Shown here one piece after another: positions 87 to 27,872 of a stretch of DNA of 64,000 nt. Numbering within the stretch: position 1 is the first letter of the stretch; every line of letters begins with the position of its first letter. Location of the stretch: IMG/VR virus record IMGVR_UViG_3300046507_000282, positions 1-64,000 of that record. One strand, 5' to 3'. This stretch comes from a virus. Made by a program: the position numbers and the translations under genes. The notes below the pieces were generated by a model. That model was not told the origin of the DNA, did no database searches, and saw only the letters and a program-made list of their open reading frames with translations.

Positions 87-314
87 GTGCCAATAACCAC
101 CGATGGGAGCATTTTGAATCTTCACCCCACACCCGAAGAACTGCGCGCCCTTCGCCGGGCCGCAGGCATCAGTCACTCGAAGGCCGCCGCGCTTGTCCAC
201 CTGGGCCACGGTAAGCGCTGGCACGAATACGAGGCTGGGTCTCGCAACATCGATAAGGCCCGTTTCGAGCTATTCCTGATTAAGACGGGCCAGCACCCCA
301 CCATCAAAGCCTAA
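87..314 (+). CDS. Small XRE-family HTH regulator
   Basis: LRALRRAAGISHSKAAALVHL...WHEYEAG matches the XRE HTH pattern. Confidence 0.7.
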   Translation: MPITTDGSILNLHPTPEELRALRRAAGISHSKAAALVHLGHGKRWHEYEAGSRNIDKARFELFLIKTGQHPTIKA

Positions 315-2911
315 ACCTGTTCGAACATGTGGCATGCGTGCGCCGCTGGCATGACGATCACCTGCATTTCGTTGCAGTATTTGCGGTCGAAATCGAAGTG
401 AGCGCACCCGCCGCAGCGCTCCTCTGTGATTTGCTCCTTCTCCTGAATCAGCTTGTTCAGAATCGGGCTCTGCACCTGAGCGCTATCGCTAATCATAACC
501 TTGCCATCCCCTTCGTCAGCATCGGGAAACAGGAACGCCGTACCGCCGTGCGCGCGAGCCCACGCGACGTTCATCAACATGAAGGCGTAGGAGAAGTGGG
601 GGTCGATACCGACCTTCACCACTTTGCGCCGGAATTTCTTCTCTTCCTCGTCTTGCTCAACAATCAGCGCCGTTCGCGTGAAGTGCTTGAACACGCGTTC
701 GAGGATCGGCCCGAGTTGCTTCGTGCCGCGGATGCCGTTGTCTCCGTCGTCCGTCAGTTCCTGCAGCAATCCCTTCGGATCGGGGAACACGCATACGTGC
801 GCCGTGATGCGCGCGAGCGCCACCTGCATGCTCTTGTACTGGTCGAGCGTGACCGTGTAGCGGTCCTGCTCCTCTTCATCCGTCTTGCGCTCTGCCTTCG
901 TCGGCACGGCATCGCCCCAGCGCAGCGAAGCATCCTGGATGGTTGCGTAGCTCGCGAGAAACACGATGCCCTTGTGCCGGTTCGCGAAGCGGTGCGCATC
1001 GTTGTAATTCGGGAGGGTCTCACAGACGCAGACCTTCACGCCGTACTGCACGATCAGTTCCGAGCATCGCGCGAAGGGGTCGTCCGAATAGATTTCCTCT
1101 GCGTGGACGATTGCCATGTGGCCGCTAGCCAGCCGCTCGCAAATGATGATTACGTTGAACTTGCCCATTTGGTCGATACCGGCGAACGTGCCGCGCGCCC
1201 GGTCCTTCCACTCCACGCCGAGCCGCCGCCCCTCTTCCACGCACTCAGCGAGGATTTCAAGGTTGATCGGGATTTGCGTGGGGTCTGCATACGGCTTGCC
1301 GAGCTTCCGGTTATAGAAGTTCCGCATGTCTGCAGCGTTGTGATACGCCTCAATCATTTCGCGGGCGGAAATGGTCGGCGAAAGAGTCTGCGGAAAATGG
1401 ACGGATCGGTTGATGGCGTCCGGATTCTTCGCGATCCACTCGCCGCGCTGCGTGTCGTCAATCCAGCCGTCGCATTCCTTGCACTTGTAGCGATACTCGC
1501 CCGTGAGCCCGGCTTCGCGCTCGCGCTCATTCACGCGCAGCGCAGTCGGATCGTAGCCAATGCACGCCGGGAAGTTTTCATCTAGCACCTGCTTGACGAG
1601 GCAGTGCGGGCACTCCGTATGGAACTGGTATTGCTTCCCCTTTTTGAACCACCAGTGAATGTCGCCGTCGGGAAGGTTCGCGGTCGAGCCCATCAGCGTG
1701 TACTTCATTTTCGACGCCGACATACGCTCGCGGACCTTCTCCATGTCCGCGATCACCATTTCCTGCACTTCGTCAAAGCTAACCACGTCCATCGGATTCG
1801 ATTCCGTGGCCGTCTTGCCCGATGTCCAGAGGAAGTGATACCGCGATTCGCCGATGTTCCGCGTGAGCACGTTGCCGTCGCCGGTAACGCCGGATTCGGC
1901 GAGGCCCTCTTTCATCAGCCGGCGCACGGCGGGGATGGTCCGAACAATCGCCATGAAGCGGTGCGTTGACTTGCCCGCGGCGAGCATTTGCGACGGCATG
2001 AACATGCCGATCTTGGACGACGGGAAGCGCAGACCCAGGTAGATCATGGCGAGCATTTCCATGACCGTGAAACCCACCTGCGTACACTTCATGATGATAT
2101 CGACGCGCTGGTAGGCGTCTTTGACCGTGTGCGGAATCAGGTCGTAAATGAAGTGCATCGCCGGGCGATCATCCAGGCGGAACGGGTAGCCGTCCACGCG
2201 CAGCCCCTCGCGCGACAGGCGCTCACACCACTCGCGAAAGGTTTCGTCCGGGCCGATGATCTGCTGGCCGGGCGTCAGGTCAATCGGCGCATCCACGAAC
2301 TCGCCGAGGCGCTCTTGCCGGAACGTGTCGAGCGACATGTTCGCGCGGTCGAACTCGATAGCCGCGCGGTCGGCGTGTGGGTTACCTTCGCTCTTGAGTT
2401 GGAATGTCTCCCAGTCGCGTCCTGCGCCCCTGTACAGGGCCGCGAACGGCCCGCGCAGGCCCATGGGCTTACCGAAGTACCAAACCCGCCCATGGCGGTT
2501 TAAATGGACGCTCTCATGGAATTCCTGCACCCGGTCGATCTTGTGCGCGTCGTCCACGACGATAAGGTGGAACTCGTCGTAAATCGGTTCGGGCTTGTCG
2601 CGCGGAATGAACTTGATCGAGCCGCCGTTCACCAGGTCCCAGCGCATGTGCTCAGGACGGTTGATAAGCAGCGGGCGGATGACGCGCAGCAGCGCGGCCT
2701 TCATACGCTCCACGTCGTCGTCAGTGGGCACGACGAGCGCCGTCCTGAAGCCGTTGAGCGCGCCGAAGTGGGAAATCAGTAGGGTAACGAGCGCGAGCGT
2801 CGTCTTGCCTGAGTCGTTTCCGCCATGGACCAAGTTAAAGCGCGCAGTGCTGGCAAATGCCTGCGACTGCGCGCCGAAGAGAAGTGGAAGCCTGATTTCG
2901 TGCTGCTGCAC
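311..2911 (-). CDS. terL: Terminase large subunit (GpA-type) with an extra N-terminal terminase-type ATPase domain
   Basis: GpA motifs KCTQVGFT, VVSFDE, GSTA, CPHC/CKEC, FYNRKLGKPY, GIDQ; N-terminal GGNDSGKT / IVVDDAH / NPH...FRQERLGEF. Confidence 0.9.
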   Translation of the reverse strand: MQQHEIRLPLLFGAQSQAFASTARFNLVHGGNDSGKTTLALVTLLISHFGALNGFRTALVVPTDDDVERMKAALLRVIRPLLINRPEHMRWDLVNGGSIKFIPRDKPEPIYDEFHLIVVDDAHKIDRVQEFHESVHLNRHGRVWYFGKPMGLRGPFAALYRGAGRDWETFQLKSEGNPHADRAAIEFDRANMSLDTFRQERLGEFVDAPIDLTPGQQIIGPDETFREWCERLSREGLRVDGYPFRLDDRPAMHFIYDLIPHTVKDAYQRVDIIMKCTQVGFTVMEMLAMIYLGLRFPSSKIGMFMPSQMLAAGKSTHRFMAIVRTIPAVRRLMKEGLAESGVTGDGNVLTRNIGESRYHFLWTSGKTATESNPMDVVSFDEVQEMVIADMEKVRERMSASKMKYTLMGSTANLPDGDIHWWFKKGKQYQFHTECPHCLVKQVLDENFPACIGYDPTALRVNEREREAGLTGEYRYKCKECDGWIDDTQRGEWIAKNPDAINRSVHFPQTLSPTISAREMIEAYHNAADMRNFYNRKLGKPYADPTQIPINLEILAECVEEGRRLGVEWKDRARGTFAGIDQMGKFNVIIICERLASGHMAIVHAEEIYSDDPFARCSELIVQYGVKVCVCETLPNYNDAHRFANRHKGIVFLASYATIQDASLRWGDAVPTKAERKTDEEEQDRYTVTLDQYKSMQVALARITAHVCVFPDPKGLLQELTDDGDNGIRGTKQLGPILERVFKHFTRTALIVEQDEEEKKFRRKVVKVGIDPHFSYAFMLMNVAWARAHGGTAFLFPDADEGDGKVMISDSAQVQSPILNKLIQEKEQITEERCGGCAHFDFDRKYCNEMQVIVMPAAHACHMFEQV

Positions 2912-2948
2912 TGTGACGCCTCAAAAATCGTTGAGCTACATGCGATTT

Positions 2949-2966: not shown

Positions 2967-3200
2967 CTAATCGACGTTCTGTTGCGTTTCGTTGACCCAT
3001 GCGGATTCGGTCGCAACCAGCCATGCGGTTCCGACTTCGACGTACGTGTAGGTTTTGACACGGACGATAGCGCCCTGCTCGATGCACGTATCGGTCAGGC
3101 GATTGCCGTTCGTGTCGTAGGTGTATGCATGCGGCAGGGCGGCCGGCTCGAACGGCTTGCCCAGGTTGTCCTTGACGACGACGCGCATCGGTGCGGCCAT
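2967..3200 (-). CDS. Small late protein with one YD-repeat-like motif
   Basis: YTYDTNGNRLTDT; AAGGAA RBS; late motif upstream. Confidence 0.65.
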   Translation of the reverse strand: MAAPMRVVVKDNLGKPFEPAALPHAYTYDTNGNRLTDTCIEQGAIVRVKTYTYVEVGTAWLVATESAWVNETQQNVD

Positions 3201-3311: not shown

Positions 3312-3662
3312 TCAGTTCATTGCGTGGGCGATTATTCCGTTCGCCACTTGCTCTGCGCACTTGTCCATGTCTACCTTTTCGCCGACCGTGGCAGCCGCCG
3401 ACAACTGGCAGATTTTCCTGGCCTGAGCGACGATCTGCGCCTTGGCGTCGTCCATTTGCGCAACTGCTTGCGCGGGATGCGGATCGCTAGACAGCGGGCG
3501 ATTCTGTTCATGTCCGTAGACAAGAATGTCAGTGTCAACCGTAGAGGCTTGCGACTGCGCCACGGCATCCGGCGAGTACGTTGCTCGCTCGGCTCGCTGC
3601 GCACCATACGCTAGGGCGAAAACAGCCAAGGCGGCGATTGATACGGCGATTGCTTTTTTCAT
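3312..3662 (-). CDS. Exported hypothetical protein
   Basis: N-terminal signal/TM MKKAIAVSIAALAVFALAYG. Confidence 0.7.
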   Translation of the reverse strand: MKKAIAVSIAALAVFALAYGAQRAERATYSPDAVAQSQASTVDTDILVYGHEQNRPLSSDPHPAQAVAQMDDAKAQIVAQARKICQLSAAATVGEKVDMDKCAEQVANGIIAHAMN

Positions 3663-18250: not shown

Positions 18251-18694
18251 TTACGCGGTTTGCGCAGGCGGAGATTGCTGGTTCATGCCGGCGAATGCGG
18301 ACATGATTGCCGCGGCGTCGCGGTCCATCCATTCCTTCTGTGCTTTCTTCTTCGCTTCGAGAATGCGGAGCCGCATGAGCGAGAGACCAAGGCAGGCGAC
18401 AAGCCACGCTACAGCAATGACGTAGTGCGTGAACCAGATCAGGCCGATCAGAATGAAGTACTGCGATACCACTTCCGCGCCGCGCCAGAACTTGCCAGCC
18501 AGACTCGCCTTAAGCGCCCCCTCGGGCTTCACTGGGAAGCACAGCGCCAGCAGCACCAGCAGAGCGACGCCGATCACATAAGCGCTCAGGACGTGCCCAG
18601 CGCCAGCGACGCCTTTAATCAGCCACGCGAACAACAGCGCCCACATGATGACGTTACGGAACAGCATGAAACAGGTTTTCAGGATTGACTTCAT
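18251..18694 (-). CDS. Multi-pass membrane protein
   Basis: About four hydrophobic segments; GGAG RBS. Confidence 0.7.
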   Translation of the reverse strand: MKSILKTCFMLFRNVIMWALLFAWLIKGVAGAGHVLSAYVIGVALLVLLALCFPVKPEGALKASLAGKFWRGAEVVSQYFILIGLIWFTHYVIAVAWLVACLGLSLMRLRILEAKKKAQKEWMDRDAAAIMSAFAGMNQQSPPAQTA

Positions 18695-18711
18695 CGTTCA
18701 AAACTCCAAGG

Positions 18712-19407
18712 TTAAGGGAACAGCTTCTTCAGGTTCTTCATGGTCAGCTTGCCCGTCTTGTAGCAGCCCGTATCCACGTAATACGTGTTTCCAAGGCTCG
18801 TCACTCGTTCGACGGGGGTATGACCTACGACTACCGCGTGGACGCCGCCAATGAGGCTGTCATCGAGCCGGTCGATCCTTCCGCGCGACCATATGGCCGT
18901 ATTGCGGATGGCCTGCGCCTGCATCGGCGGATATTTGTCGGCAAGCTCGGGCAATTGGGACTGGCGGAACGTGTCCCAGTGATCGAACGGGCACTGTGCA
19001 TGCACGATGCCAACCGTACGACCGCCGCCAATCTCTACCTCGATGGCGAGCGGCATGTTCAGCATCGCGTCAGCAAGAGCGACGCGCTCGGGATTCGTCT
19101 TGCCGACCATCCACGCGCCACCGATCCCGACGTACCAGTTCACATCGCGCAACGCGCCCATGGCGTACATGATCCCGGCGTCCTCATGGTTCCCCATGAC
19201 GGATACGAACCACGGCTCATCTAGCAGCTTCAGCGCACCCTCTGAGTCGCTGCCACGGTCAACCAGGTCGCCGGTTGCAAAGATGCGATCAACCGACGGG
19301 TCGAAGCGCTTTTCGTCCATCTTTGCGTGCAGAGCGTCAACGCATCCGTGCAAATCGCCAATGACGAAGTCGCGCCCGCGCGTGTTTTCAGGGTAGACAG
19401 GGATCAT
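18712..19407 (-). CDS. Ser/Thr protein phosphatase (NinI/PphA-like metallophosphoesterase)
   Basis: GDLHG, GDLVDRG, GNHE, GHT, DTG motifs. Confidence 0.93.
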   Translation of the reverse strand: MIPVYPENTRGRDFVIGDLHGCVDALHAKMDEKRFDPSVDRIFATGDLVDRGSDSEGALKLLDEPWFVSVMGNHEDAGIMYAMGALRDVNWYVGIGGAWMVGKTNPERVALADAMLNMPLAIEVEIGGGRTVGIVHAQCPFDHWDTFRQSQLPELADKYPPMQAQAIRNTAIWSRGRIDRLDDSLIGGVHAVVVGHTPVERVTSLGNTYYVDTGCYKTGKLTMKNLKKLFP

Positions 19408-24590: not shown

Positions 24591-24861
24591 TGATGCGGCC
24601 CACCACGAACAGCTTCGCGCCCAGGTTCACGCGGTCGTCCACTATGCCGATGAACTGCATGCCTCCATTGAACGACTCACCCTCGCGAACGACTTGCACT
24701 TCCCAGTAGGTTTGACCGCTCCCCCACGCCTGCCCTTCGGCGTACGCGAATAGTTGATCGCCCTCGTAACCGACGGCTACGAACTTCGAGCCGAACGGCA
24801 CTGGCACGCTTGTATAGCCGCCCATGCTTGCCGAGAGCGCATGTTTTTGAATCGTCTTCAC
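24583..24861 (-). CDS. Hypothetical phage protein
   Basis: Coupled ORF. Confidence 0.6.
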   Translation of the reverse strand: MKTIQKHALSASMGGYTSVPVPFGSKFVAVGYEGDQLFAYAEGQAWGSGQTYWEVQVVREGESFNGGMQFIGIVDDRVNLGAKLFVVGRING

Positions 24862-26213
24862 AGAAAACCCCTTCCAAGTTCGTTGTTGAGATACTGCTTG
24901 AGGCGAAGCCCGATCCAGCCCATTACTGGCGTCGCCATCGAGTTGCCGATTGCCTTGTAACGCGGCCCATCCGCAGCGGGTTTGCCGCGGTGAGGCACGA
25001 GCGTGTAGCCATCCGGAAAGCCCTGCAGGCGCTCACACTCGACCGGCATCAGGCGGCGCACGCGCAGCCCGGATAGCGCGACAGGAGCCGCGCGAGAGCG
25101 ATCCTGGCTAGTGGTCAGGGTGCGAGCTACTGCGACCTCCTCAAACGTCCCTTCCTTGTAGTCAACGGCGCTGAATGCCACCGGCACGATAGGCTGACCG
25201 CGCCCCGTGCAATCCTCGCTCGCGTCGAATCCTTCAGCCTTCAGCGTATGAGTGATATCGCCGGTCACGCATACGGCAAGCGCGTCACCACCATCGCCGC
25301 GCGGTCGCTCCACGCCGCTCGTAATGGTCGGCGCGACTTCCGTAATGAATGTCTCGGTCTCGTAGTCGATCCGCCCCATACCGCCCGCGTTCAAGCAGTG
25401 TGATATGTCGCCCGTCGAAGCGATCAGGTGTCCAGCTTGGGCCTGGTTGTCGTCTGCGCCACATGTTCCAACGCCGTTTGCAGTGAGTGCGGCAACGTGC
25501 GTTTGCGATTCGCGGCGCGGCGCAGAATCCCGGCGCACGCCGTCCCACTCAAAAAGTACTGCGCTGGGATCGAAACCCTTACGAGCACTTGCGACAACGA
25601 AGACACGCTTGCGTTGTTGAGCCAAACCTGCATATTGGGCATCCAGGGTGCGCCATGCGACTGCGCGCTTGGGTCCAAGCACAAAACCAGCGTGCGCCCA
25701 TTTTTTCCCTGGCGCGACGAGGGGCACTTCTTCGCCGGCAAGCCCTGCAAGGAAGCATCCAAATGCGTTGTCTTTGGTTGAGAGGACGCCGGGGACGTTT
25801 TCCCACACGGCGATACAGGGAGGAAGTCCGGATCGTTGGCGAACAAAGTCGATTGCATCGAGGAGCCGCATGTAAGTAAGGGTCAACTGGCCGCGGTCGT
25901 CATCGAGAGCCTCGCGCAGGCCAGCAAGGGAGAACGCCTGGCATGGCGTACCGCCAACCAGCACGTCAGGGGCTTTGGCCTCGCCTACCAGGATGGCACG
26001 CGCGATCTTGCGCATGTCGCCGAGATTGGGGACAGCCGGATAGTGGTGTTTGAGCACGCTGCAGGGGTAAGCCTCAATCTCAGAGAACCATGCGGCTTTC
26101 ATGCCGAGCGGCTCCCATGCGACGGTCGCGGCCTCAATCCCACTGCACACAGATCCATAGGTAACAGCGGGCGGCATCGGATCGCGGCCCGTCTTCAGTT
26201 TTTTCCTCTTCAT
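24858..26213 (-). CDS. DNA (cytosine-5) methyltransferase
   Basis: SVCSGIE, GGTPCQAFS, WENVPG, QQRKRVF, RRLMPVECERLQGFP, IGNSM. Confidence 0.95.
   Translation of the reverse strand: MKRKKLKTGRDPMPPAVTYGSVCSGIEAATVAWEPLGMKAAWFSEIEAYPCSVLKHHYPAVPNLGDMRKIARAILVGEAKAPDVLVGGTPCQAFSLAGLREALDDDRGQLTLTYMRLLDAIDFVRQRSGLPPCIAVWENVPGVLSTKDNAFGCFLAGLAGEEVPLVAPGKKWAHAGFVLGPKRAVAWRTLDAQYAGLAQQRKRVFVVASARKGFDPSAVLFEWDGVRRDSAPRRESQTHVAALTANGVGTCGADDNQAQAGHLIASTGDISHCLNAGGMGRIDYETETFITEVAPTITSGVERPRGDGGDALAVCVTGDITHTLKAEGFDASEDCTGRGQPIVPVAFSAVDYKEGTFEEVAVARTLTTSQDRSRAAPVALSGLRVRRLMPVECERLQGFPDGYTLVPHRGKPAADGPRYKAIGNSMATPVMGWIGLRLKQYLNNELGRGFL
25424..25858 (-). CDS. Nested alternative-frame ORF resembling the beta polypeptide of EcoHK31I-type methyltransferases
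   Basis: SSLSQVL...YFLS..ACAGILRRA..R...LP..L..ALE in a second frame inside the MTase gene. Confidence 0.6.
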   Translation of the reverse strand: MQSTLFANDPDFLPVSPCGKTSPASSQPKTTHLDASLQGLPAKKCPSSRQGKNGRTLVLCLDPSAQSHGAPWMPNMQVWLNNASVSSLSQVLVRVSIPAQYFLSGTACAGILRRAANRKRTLPHSLQTALEHVAQTTTRPKLDT

Positions 26214-26455
26214 CTTTTGGTCTTGGGCTCGCGTTGAATTGCTTTCTTCAGTTCGACGGCGCAAACATCAGCCGCCTTGTCGCCATGGCTCGCGCGCACG
26301 GTCGCGATGATTGATTCGGACTGGCGATAGTCCCGGCGCTTGCCAGCCGCTACAGCGGCGTTAAAACGCGCCAGGCACGCCTCTTTGTCCCGATTCCATG
26401 CGTCCTCCTGCGCCTGTACCTCGGGCGGTACGGCGGGCCTTCCAAATAAGCTCAT
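26210..26455 (-). CDS. Hypothetical protein
   Basis: AAGGA RBS; ATGA overlap with the MTase. Confidence 0.7.
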   Translation of the reverse strand: MSLFGRPAVPPEVQAQEDAWNRDKEACLARFNAAVAAGKRRDYRQSESIIATVRASHGDKAADVCAVELKKAIQREPKTKR

Positions 26456-27230: not shown

Positions 27231-27872
27231 CTAGACAAGTTTGCCCCCTTCCTGTTGATGCACAATGATCGTGGCGGCGGGCGGCGCATCATTGCCACCG
27301 CCACCACCGCCCCGGCTTACCCCAATCCCCCACGCCTGGCGCTCGGCATCGTGCAGCGCCCTGAATGCCTCTGTGAGCGTCTTAGCGACGCGCGCATGTG
27401 TCAGACCATCCTTCGTACCCGCCTTCTTCACCGCGCCGTATAGCTGCGCGCGGATCGCCCCCAGTTCGTGCCGATGGCGTTCAATGAGCGCGACACGCTT
27501 CGACTCCGCGGCGTCGCGCACGATTTCAGTCACCTTGTGGGGCGGCGTCCCGTCGGGAATGACGGGCATCGAGCGATCTAATTCGGGTTCGCGGGGCTTG
27601 ACTTTTGGATCGGTCCCGTAAACCTCATTTCCTTGCGTCCCGACTTCTACGGAACTTTCTGTAACTTTAGAATCTGCAATGCGATGCACTTTCCCTTCAA
27701 TGGCAATCGCATCTGTTCCCTTCTGCCACTTCTCACGGATAGCCCGCTGGCGTACACCCTGCCGTGTCACGCCTAGCGACTGGGCGATTTCCTCGAACGT
27801 GATAACCGGGTCGGCTTCCCAAATTGCGCGGACCTTTGCCCACGTCTCTTTGCTAATCGTCGGCGCTGGCAT
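27231..27872 (-). CDS. terS: Terminase small subunit (probable)
   Basis: N-terminal HTH W..VR..WE...EIAQSLGVTRQGV..RA..EKW, helical core, ERQAWGI; late motif upstream. Confidence 0.7.
   Translation of the reverse strand: MPAPTISKETWAKVRAIWEADPVITFEEIAQSLGVTRQGVRQRAIREKWQKGTDAIAIEGKVHRIADSKVTESSVEVGTQGNEVYGTDPKVKPREPELDRSMPVIPDGTPPHKVTEIVRDAAESKRVALIERHRHELGAIRAQLYGAVKKAGTKDGLTHARVAKTLTEAFRALHDAERQAWGIGVSRGGGGGGNDAPPAATIIVHQQEGGKLV

Follow-up and report, generated by a model that had tools for sequence, protein, structure and literature searches.

A degenerate TerL-type ATPase domain fused to the GpA-type large terminase of a 94-kb tailed phage

Why does a phage large terminase carry, ahead of its own motor, a second ATPase domain from another terminase lineage? 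The question is raised by the gene at positions 311 to 2911 of the window, by which we mean the whole stretch of DNA analysed, the first 64 kb (64,000 nucleotides) of the complete 93,887-bp virus record IMGVR_UViG_3300046507_000282 in IMG/VR. As the record is complete with direct terminal repeats, it is a phage genome and not a bacterial chromosome, and the gene product is the large terminase (TerL) of a complete 94-kb tailed phage. The initial annotation had described this product as two tandem ATPase domains of different terminase families in one open reading frame (ORF), and its gene model and quoted motifs are all present exactly as given (minus strand, 866 amino acids (aa), GTG start). 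In the protein, a TerL-type ATPase domain, here called the N-domain, precedes a complete TerL comprising ATPase and nuclease, here called the GpA part, and a tail with a cluster of four cysteines (Cys4) comes last. The features of the gene are as follows.

311 to 2911, minus strand: fused terminase gene, 866 aa plus stop, GTG start, identical to an 866-aa database protein (P0002)
2919 to 2922, minus strand: GAGG Shine-Dalgarno sequence, 7 nucleotides before the GTG, by direct reading of the sequence
2291 to 2911, minus strand: N-domain, aa 1-207, degenerate T4/Terminase_6N-type TerL ATPase fold and probable pseudo-ATPase, from phrog_2, relatives, the model, Foldseek and the superposition on 4ZNL
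2801 to 2824, minus strand: Walker A of the N-domain, GGNDSGKT, aa 30-37, GK[ST] core retained and P-loop Arg replaced by N32, from the alignment
2549 to 2566, minus strand: Walker B of the N-domain, LIVVDD, aa 116-121, with Asp121 in place of the catalytic Glu, from the alignment
2126 to 2290, minus strand: junction, aa 208-262, with the invariant landmark ETF..WC.RL common to unfused TerLs, from the alignment
1277 to 2125, minus strand: GpA-type ATPase domain, aa 263-545, with an inserted Cys4 cluster (C434, C437, C477, C480), from PF05876 and invariant columns
542 to 1276, minus strand: RNase H-like TerL nuclease domain, aa 546-790, from the structure match and phrog_675 coverage to aa 790
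314 to 541, minus strand: variable C-terminal tail, aa 791-866, with an invariant terminal Cys4 cluster (C833, C836, C846, C860), from the alignment and the model

In the translation the motifs of the N-domain are AQ (aa 14-15), GGNDSGKT (30-37), IVVDDAH (117-123), GKP (147-149), NPH (177-179) and FRQERLGEF (197-205), and downstream of it KCTQVGFT, VVSFDE, GSTA and the two Cys4 clusters follow.

Both halves of the protein match terminase families of their own. Residues 222-790 match the GpA-type TerL family phrog_675 of the PHROGs database (E 1.1e-91, profile positions 21-553 of 576), and residues 11-208 match phrog_2, the large family of T4-type TerLs (E 4.4e-13). The Pfam search that had been proposed for the separate parts succeeded for one of them only: GpA_ATPase (Pfam: PF05876) is found at aa 263-493 with 46.4 bits against a cut-off of 25.6, but Terminase_6N (Pfam: PF03237) on the N-terminal part alone stays below threshold (13.1 bits against 22, E 0.077), with a match that still covers profile positions 4-202 of 215. 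An exhaustive phmmer search of 1.84 billion representatives with aa 1-220 returned 404 proteins at E <= 1e-3. The best matches outside the fused family are canonical TerLs of about 390-450 aa which carry Terminase_6N and the Terminase_6C nuclease, and it is their first ~210 residues that align with the N-domain, end to end and with about 30% identity (E 1e-15 to 1e-7). A profile built from the fused family only matches the solved ATPase domain of the P74-26 TerL over aa 11-215. In the fused protein, the domain that follows is the GpA-type ATPase and not the cognate Terminase_6C nuclease. We conclude that the N-domain descends from a different TerL lineage, that of the small Terminase_6N+6C terminases.

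The predicted structures agree with this. The AlphaFold model of aa 1-212 has a mean predicted local distance difference test score (pLDDT) of 95.4 and a predicted template modelling score (pTM) of 0.91, and the top ~30 Foldseek matches of the N-domain model in the PDB are all TerL ATPase domains (E 5e-12 to 2e-6), among them P74-26, Sf6 gp2, D6E and T4 gp17. In the full-length model (pLDDT 85.4, pTM 0.57), aa 5-207 superpose on the P74-26 TerL ATPase (4ZNL) with Z 21.6 and a root mean square deviation (RMSD) of 2.6 Å, and aa 220-785 superpose on the entire HK97 TerL with Z 19.4. The GpA-type ATPase domain matches the T4 gp17 ATPase with Z 18, and aa 546-787 match the TerL nucleases of Sf6 gp2, G20c, E217 and P74-26 with Z 14-16.3 and RMSD ~3 Å, Sf6 gp2 reaching 16.3. 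The terminase ATPase fold of the N-terminal part, on which the initial annotation had staked its claim beforehand, is thus recovered by PHROGs, phmmer, Foldseek and superposition, and the assignment of the two ATPases to different families stands.

Both Cys4 clusters, C434/C437/C477/C480 and C833/C836/C846/C860, are invariant and common to fused and unfused members of the GpA subfamily, and both are probably zinc ribbons. The second forms the extreme C-terminus, which in lambda gpA is the portal-binding end.

The fusion is widespread. The best 120 database matches are all 840-893 aa long, with 96-100% query coverage and 50-100% identity, and fused proteins in the database number more than 120. 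Eight cultured phages with genomes of 86-95 kb have the same one-ORF architecture, with 36-53% identity over 99% of the length: Aeromonas phage ST4, Pseudomonas phages Touem01, Jeremy and Dolphis, Escherichia phage ECML-606-1, Enterobacter phage phiT5282EW, Yersinia phage fHe-Yen8-01 and Morganella phage Mecenats66. With a hidden Markov model (HMM) of the N-domain, we detected the domain in 10 of 73 IMG/VR loci of relatives, always in the same ORF as the GpA part and in none of the 73 as a separate ORF. The same ORF recurs in 8 isolates, 10 IMG/VR loci and over 120 proteins, which rules out an artefact of assembly or of a frameshift, and the two separate genes that homologues might have revealed are not seen there. 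The exhaustive search also returned short matches (49-295 aa) that could be taken for stand-alone N-domain proteins; these are contig-end or frameshifted pieces of fused or canonical TerLs.

To describe the state of the N-domain, we counted residues in an alignment of 124 fused N-domains with 116 canonical relatives. In ASCE (additional strand, conserved glutamate) ATPases, the residue following the Walker B Asp is the catalytic base. At this position, 121, Glu is found in all 116 canonical relatives and in none of the 124 fused N-domains, which have Asp (112), Asn (8), Gly (2) or Gln (1); the DD first noticed in place of DE is the form with Asp. The equivalent Glu in T4 gp17 is presumably E256, and conservative Glu-to-Asp changes at this position in T4 gp17 are reportedly null. 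The first Arg of the P-loop (position 32) is present in 115 of the 116 canonical relatives and in 17 of the 124 fused N-domains, where Glu occurs 73 times; in the protein studied here it is Asn. The coupling motif is S-T-P in the canonical relatives and S/G-K/G-A/P in the fused N-domains, and the GKP that the initial annotation had pointed out in place of S/T-T-P therefore belongs to a degradation seen across the fused family. The stretch ahead of Walker B is basic and RGRKY-like in the canonical relatives, and aromatic or acidic in the fused N-domains. In the HMM alignment to the P74-26 TerL, R39 corresponds to N32, and R139 to Y111, which is F, W or Y across the fused family. R39 of P74-26 TerL touches the gamma-phosphate, and R139 serves as the arginine finger acting in trans, critical for hydrolysis (PMC5389665).

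Other positions are common to fused and canonical proteins, namely Q15 of the Q motif, R24, G31, G35, K36, T/S37, D120, G141, G151, N177-P178 and Q199. Among the fused N-domains, K36 is present in 118 of 124, T/S37 in 122 and the Walker B Asp in 121, Q15 is near-invariant, and the near-invariant residues persist down to ~28% identity. A few members have lost the Walker A Lys (replaced by L, S or N, and by M in P0370). Going by the alignment, the N-domain keeps the residues that bind adenine and phosphate (Q15, G31, G35, K36, T37, D120) and lacks the catalytic Glu, the P-loop Arg for the gamma-phosphate and the trans arginine finger, and the coupling motif is a degraded one. Its evolution is about twice as fast as that of the motor domains: its mean identity to the query is 38.8%, with 10% of columns at least 90% conserved, compared with 65-67% and 40% for the GpA ATPase and nuclease.

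In the GpA part, an alignment of 71 homologues shows no variation at K275 (of KCTQVGFT), D380-E381 and S409-T410, and with its motor motifs intact the GpA-type ATPase looks active. We therefore consider it quite likely that the N-domain is a pseudo-ATPase, which would bind nucleotide and hydrolyse ATP poorly or not at all, and that the GpA ATPase serves as the translocation motor. As the N-domain fails on the catalytic residues despite its homology to T4-type TerLs and its fold, it is better described as a derived pseudo-enzyme than as a functional member of that family. Of the initial wording, a catalytically dead or regulatory second ATPase, the dead part is strongly supported by the comparison of Glu, P-loop Arg, finger and S-T-P, and the regulatory part is what we infer.

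The nearest relatives of the GpA part indicate what the N-domain takes the place of. Bordetella phage vB_BbrM_PHB04 has an unfused TerL of 698 aa which is 44% identical to aa 222-865 of the fused protein. With the PHB04 TerL as query, we found ~114 unfused relatives of 650-745 aa and six proteins of 836-887 aa with the same type of N-domain. In unfused genes, the reading frame is closed by a stop 40-98 codons ahead of the TF..WC..L landmark, with an ATG about 34-44 codons ahead of it, whereas in fused genes the frame is open there over at least 230 codons; the position of the stop means that the short length of the unfused TerL genes is genuine.

A maximum-likelihood tree of the shared GpA part was built from 109 rows and rooted with Thermus-phage TerLs. 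All early-branching ingroup lineages are fused: Mecenats66 with P0123, a 47-row clade that includes the 311-2911 protein, and P0124. Most of the PHB04-like clade is unfused, and two well-supported fused subclades are nested in it (P0294, P0295, P0301, P0309, P0362 and P0370). The tree requires at least three to four gains or losses of the N-domain. A metagenome scan for the gene contexts of the nested fused subclades recovered only unfused relatives.

The ORF abutting an unfused TerL usually encodes a helix-turn-helix (HTH) protein of 175-230 aa, of which there are two classes. The class-2 protein at locus L019 matches phrog_1206, annotated as terminase small subunit (TerS), with E 1e-15, and we call this position the TerS slot. 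With HMMs of both classes, a TerS-slot gene is found beside TerL in at least 42 unfused loci versus none of 10 fused loci. In fHe-Yen8-01 and ECML-606-1, a large tail fibre gene lies directly upstream of the fused TerL. TerL thus begins either with the N-domain or with a short N-terminus behind an adjacent TerS-like gene, and the two states alternate in evolution.

Two observations concern the unfused loci themselves. In PHB04 the TerL start is overlapped (ATGA) by a 217-aa ORF with an HTH-like N-terminal segment, unique to PHB04 among cultured phages. By its length this ORF could be a split-off N-domain; it is unrelated to the N-domain (BLASTP E 20, hhalign probability 0.2%) and is an HTH protein. 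In three unfused relatives, an HNH endonuclease gene (Pfam: PF01844, E 5e-12) lies between the TerS-like gene and TerL (L014:1195-2085, L034:1554-2456 and L050:3015-3905).

If no TerS-like gene abuts a fused TerL, the phage may still encode one elsewhere. The class-2 HMM finds the following gene in the 94-kb genome with E 2.5e-16.

27231 to 27872, minus strand: unlinked TerS-like gene, 213 aa, with an N-terminal HTH, a helical core and a hydrophobic C-tail ending ...ATIIVHQQEGGKLV, from the TerS-slot HMM and BLASTP

The gene is not adjacent to TerL and lies 24.3 kb upstream of it on the same strand. Its product matches the TerL-adjacent protein of L019 over the full length (BLASTP E 1e-12), and direct matches to phrog_1206 (E 7.9e-5) and phrog_2606 (E 1.5e-3) are weak and confined to the HTH region. 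The class-2 profile finds one such gene each in 5 of 5 cultured fused phages and in three more complete IMG/VR fused genomes, and in these 8 other genomes it is always on the TerL strand, 10-26 kb upstream; in Mecenats66 it is at 18427-18888. A class-2 homologue is hence retained in all 9 sufficiently complete fused genomes. The profile finds none in 5 of 5 complete unfused genomes that have a class-1 gene at the TerS slot, and a class-1 gene is found in none of 5 fused phages. This pattern of one TerS-like gene per genome supports the 213-aa protein as TerS. The authors describing Mecenats66 did not locate its TerS (PMC9503643), and adjacency of the TerS gene to TerL is not universal (PMC9611059). 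From these sequence comparisons, the 213-aa gene is probably the small terminase, unannotated across the fused phage group including Mecenats66.

Two other readings of the TerS question were tried and rejected. That the phage has no small terminase is ruled out for the 94-kb genome by the homologue at 27231-27872, and a TerS among the immediate neighbours of TerL is not found, as neither the six upstream ORFs nor the downstream ORF with an HTH_31 domain has a TerS match in Pfam or PHROGs. Near the 27231-27872 gene there is a DNA methyltransferase gene (24858-26264, phrog_116).

The TerS-like proteins differ between the two contexts at their C-terminal end. After a conserved GER.AWG[IL]D core, the tails of class-2 proteins fall into two types. 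All 6 TerL-adjacent proteins have the helical-looking tail ...[LM][ST]D.[EQ]LE[AE][LI]..G..., and all 9 proteins of fused genomes have a Gly/Pro-rich linker and then a short hydrophobic run (e.g. TVVVLERG, TIIIERN, VQVVIERE), which is ATIIVHQQEG in the 213-aa protein of the 94-kb genome. The comparison comprises these 9 fused and 6 adjacent proteins. In lambda and P22, the C-terminal region of TerS binds the extreme N-terminus of TerL (PMC9611059).

Our best explanation, to which we give a probability of roughly 0.55, is that a dead foreign ATPase domain sits on a GpA-type motor and acts in TerS docking or regulation. The alternation with an adjacent TerS-like gene, together with an unlinked TerS that has a different C-tail, makes docking or regulation likelier than a second motor. 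Taken alone, the reading by which the N-domain would be a docking or regulatory module for the small terminase falls, in our estimate, a little short of an even chance. The N-domain lies at the extreme N-terminus of TerL, the site at which the TerL of lambda and P22 takes the C-tail of TerS. In sister lineages its place is taken by an N-terminal peptide of ~40 aa and an abutting HTH TerS-like gene. In the fused phages the TerS-like gene is unlinked and has, in place of the helical ...TDEQLEAL..G tail, a short hydrophobic, strand-like one, which could pair with an edge of the beta-sheet of the N-domain; nucleotide occupancy might gate this interaction. More tentatively, the N-domain could be a captured foreign TerL ATPase domain, stripped of catalysis, that serves as a folded and possibly nucleotide-gated receptor for the TerS tail. 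It would then be a swappable cassette, repeatedly exchanged with a short peptide and an abutting TerS gene, and would set which TerS and pac specificity the GpA-type motor can use.

Several points weigh against this explanation. That the P-loop Lys and the Walker B Asp are so strongly conserved could also point to some remaining catalysis. The co-variation of tail and N-domain may reflect a single ancestral split, so that the difference of 9 versus 6 tails is statistically weak. Of the four arginines with which P74-26 grips DNA, only one is matched by a conserved basic residue (R90), which speaks neither for nor against a DNA-holding role of the N-domain. The geometry between the domains is uncertain in the full-length model, with its pTM of 0.57. 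The identity of the 213-aa protein as TerS is a matter of homology to TerS-slot proteins and of weak PHROG matches (E 8e-5).

Among the alternatives, the one that survives best, and which we nevertheless regard as unlikely, is a structural role apart from TerS. The pentameric motor would bear a second ring tier made up of the dead domains, which would aid the oligomerisation of TerL or, in an ATP-bound-like state, the grip on DNA for the first nuclease cut. The ATPase domain of P74-26 TerL does grip DNA when locked in the ATP state (PMC5389665), the nucleotide-binding residues of the N-domain are retained, and the basic-patch equivalent R90 is conserved in 105 of 120 proteins. However, the arginine finger and other residues of the ring-assembly interface of P74-26 are lost, conservation is lacking at three of the four DNA-patch arginines, and neither the alternation with an adjacent TerS nor the altered TerS tail would be explained.

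A little less probable still is that the N-domain replaces TerS altogether, performing pac recognition and TerL activation, while the unlinked 213-aa HTH protein has another job. The N-domain does occupy the place of the TerS-like gene of unfused relatives, no TerS was found by the authors of the Mecenats66 study (PMC9503643), and in two phages a tail-fibre gene immediately precedes TerL. This replacement is at odds with the full-length TerS-slot homologue kept in 9 of 9 sufficiently complete fused genomes, which, as expected of a TerS, is absent where the other TerS-slot class is used, and the N-domain is devoid of an HTH or any other module for reading sequence.

Equally improbable in our view is an active second ATPase, in which Asp121 acts as the catalytic base or the site is completed in cis by the GpA domain. 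In superfamily 1 and 2 helicases, tandem RecA domains complete the site in cis, and helicases do align across both ATPase domains of the model with Z 12-13. These alignments have an RMSD of 12-15 Å, so no domain geometry is shared, and we rejected a helicase-like tandem RecA arrangement. The near-invariance of the Walker A Lys (118/124), the Walker B Asp (121/124) and Q15 would suit an active site. Against it stand the complete absence of the catalytic Glu (0/124), the loss of the P-loop Arg and the Arg finger, the loss of the Walker A Lys itself in some members, the fast evolution of the N-domain and the reportedly null effect of the same Glu-to-Asp change in T4 gp17. The very improbable idea of a functionless fusion remnant or an assembly or frameshift artefact can draw on the N-domain being the least conserved folded part of the protein, but is effectively refuted by the recurrence of the ORF, seen in 8 isolates, 10 IMG/VR loci and over 120 independent proteins, by a very confident AlphaFold model and by near-invariant residues that outlast divergence to ~28% identity.

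The surroundings of the terminase gene contain further small ORFs. Just upstream, at 2967-3200 on the minus strand, a 77-aa ORF with a YD-repeat-like motif (AYTYDTNGN) has a clear homologue of 72 aa at the same place in two fused loci (L061, L062), and may be a tail-fibre-related remnant or accessory. Among the small unknown ORFs upstream is also one of 116 aa at 3312-3662 on the minus strand, which has a signal-peptide-like N-terminal segment and no family match. On the other side, at 87-314 on the plus strand, a 75-aa Xre-type HTH ORF (HTH_31, Pfam: PF13560, E 6e-6) is convergent with TerL, with an overlap of 4 nucleotides between its 3' end and the TerL stop.

Some phages with a fused terminase are found in bacterial contigs or are classed as provirus: P0100 lies on a 1.44-Mb contig of Microvirga lupini, and G009 is an IMG/VR 'provirus'. 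Part of this group of ~90-kb phages may be temperate or carried in cells. A terminase normally leaves the head once packaging ends, and association with the particle is unusual. The GenBank note for the fused terminase of fHe-Yen8-01 (L006, OR620963.1 89171-91783) labels it 'phage particle associated protein'.

Terminases serve as models for the motors that package viral DNA, and the way in which the small subunit binds to the large one and controls it is poorly understood. The fused and unfused members of this family form a natural experiment with culturable representatives (Mecenats66, Dolphis, Jeremy and ST4), in which the end of TerL that would face TerS consists of a short peptide in some members and of a degenerate ATPase domain in others, and the TerS tail and the gene linkage change in step. 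For annotation, the fused phages should not be regarded as TerS-less, as they have a candidate TerS 10-26 kb from TerL. Predictions of packaging strategy from TerL phylogeny should leave out the extra domain, because it comes from another lineage. If the N-domain is indeed a receptor cassette for the TerS tail, it would represent the first description of a pseudo-enzyme adaptor in the packaging motor of a virus, and the choice of TerS open to a GpA-type motor, with the pac specificity that follows from it, would depend on this cassette. Databases label the fused proteins 'terminase' or 'hypothetical protein'. We found no paper on a TerL with two ATPase domains, on a pseudo-ATPase terminase or on the unlinked TerS, and papers naming fused phages do not describe the second ATPase domain.

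Compared with known systems, the GpA part is in every respect examined by sequence and model a TerL of the lambda gpA family (PF05876, phrog_675). Residues 222-866 are a full-length homologue of such proteins, with 44% identity to the PHB04 TerL, and share with them the deviant Walker A KxxxxG[FY][ST], the Walker B DE, the GST C-motif, the RNase H-like nuclease and both Cys4 clusters. The difference lies ahead of it: PHB04 and its ~114 relatives start ~40 residues before TF..WC..L with an abutting HTH gene in front, whereas the fused protein has a 207-aa ATPase domain instead.

With canonical T4-type TerLs (Terminase_6N and Terminase_6C, ~400-450 aa; P74-26, 4ZNI and 4ZNL), the N-domain shares the Q motif, GK[ST], the Walker B Asp, the NP motif and Q199 of the lid helix. 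It differs from them in having no nuclease of that lineage, in Asp for the catalytic Glu, in the loss of the R39 and R139 equivalents and in G/S-K/G-P/A for S-T-P.

The same fused architecture is found in ORF56 of Mecenats66 (873 aa) and in Dolphis, Jeremy, ST4, Touem01, ECML-606-1, phiT5282EW and fHe-Yen8-01. Mecenats66 packages by a headful mechanism with a preferred initiation site (PMC9503643). Its published description gives the GpA domain only and no TerS, and mentions neither the extra ATPase domain nor an unlinked gene resembling TerS (PMC9503643). As in the docking of gpNu1 to gpA in lambda and of gp3 to gp2 in P22, it is the N-terminus of TerL that varies here, alongside the C-tail of a TerS-like protein. 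On the TerL side, the docking element of lambda and P22 is a short peptide of 23-58 residues, whereas in the fused protein an entire folded pseudo-ATPase domain would take that part.

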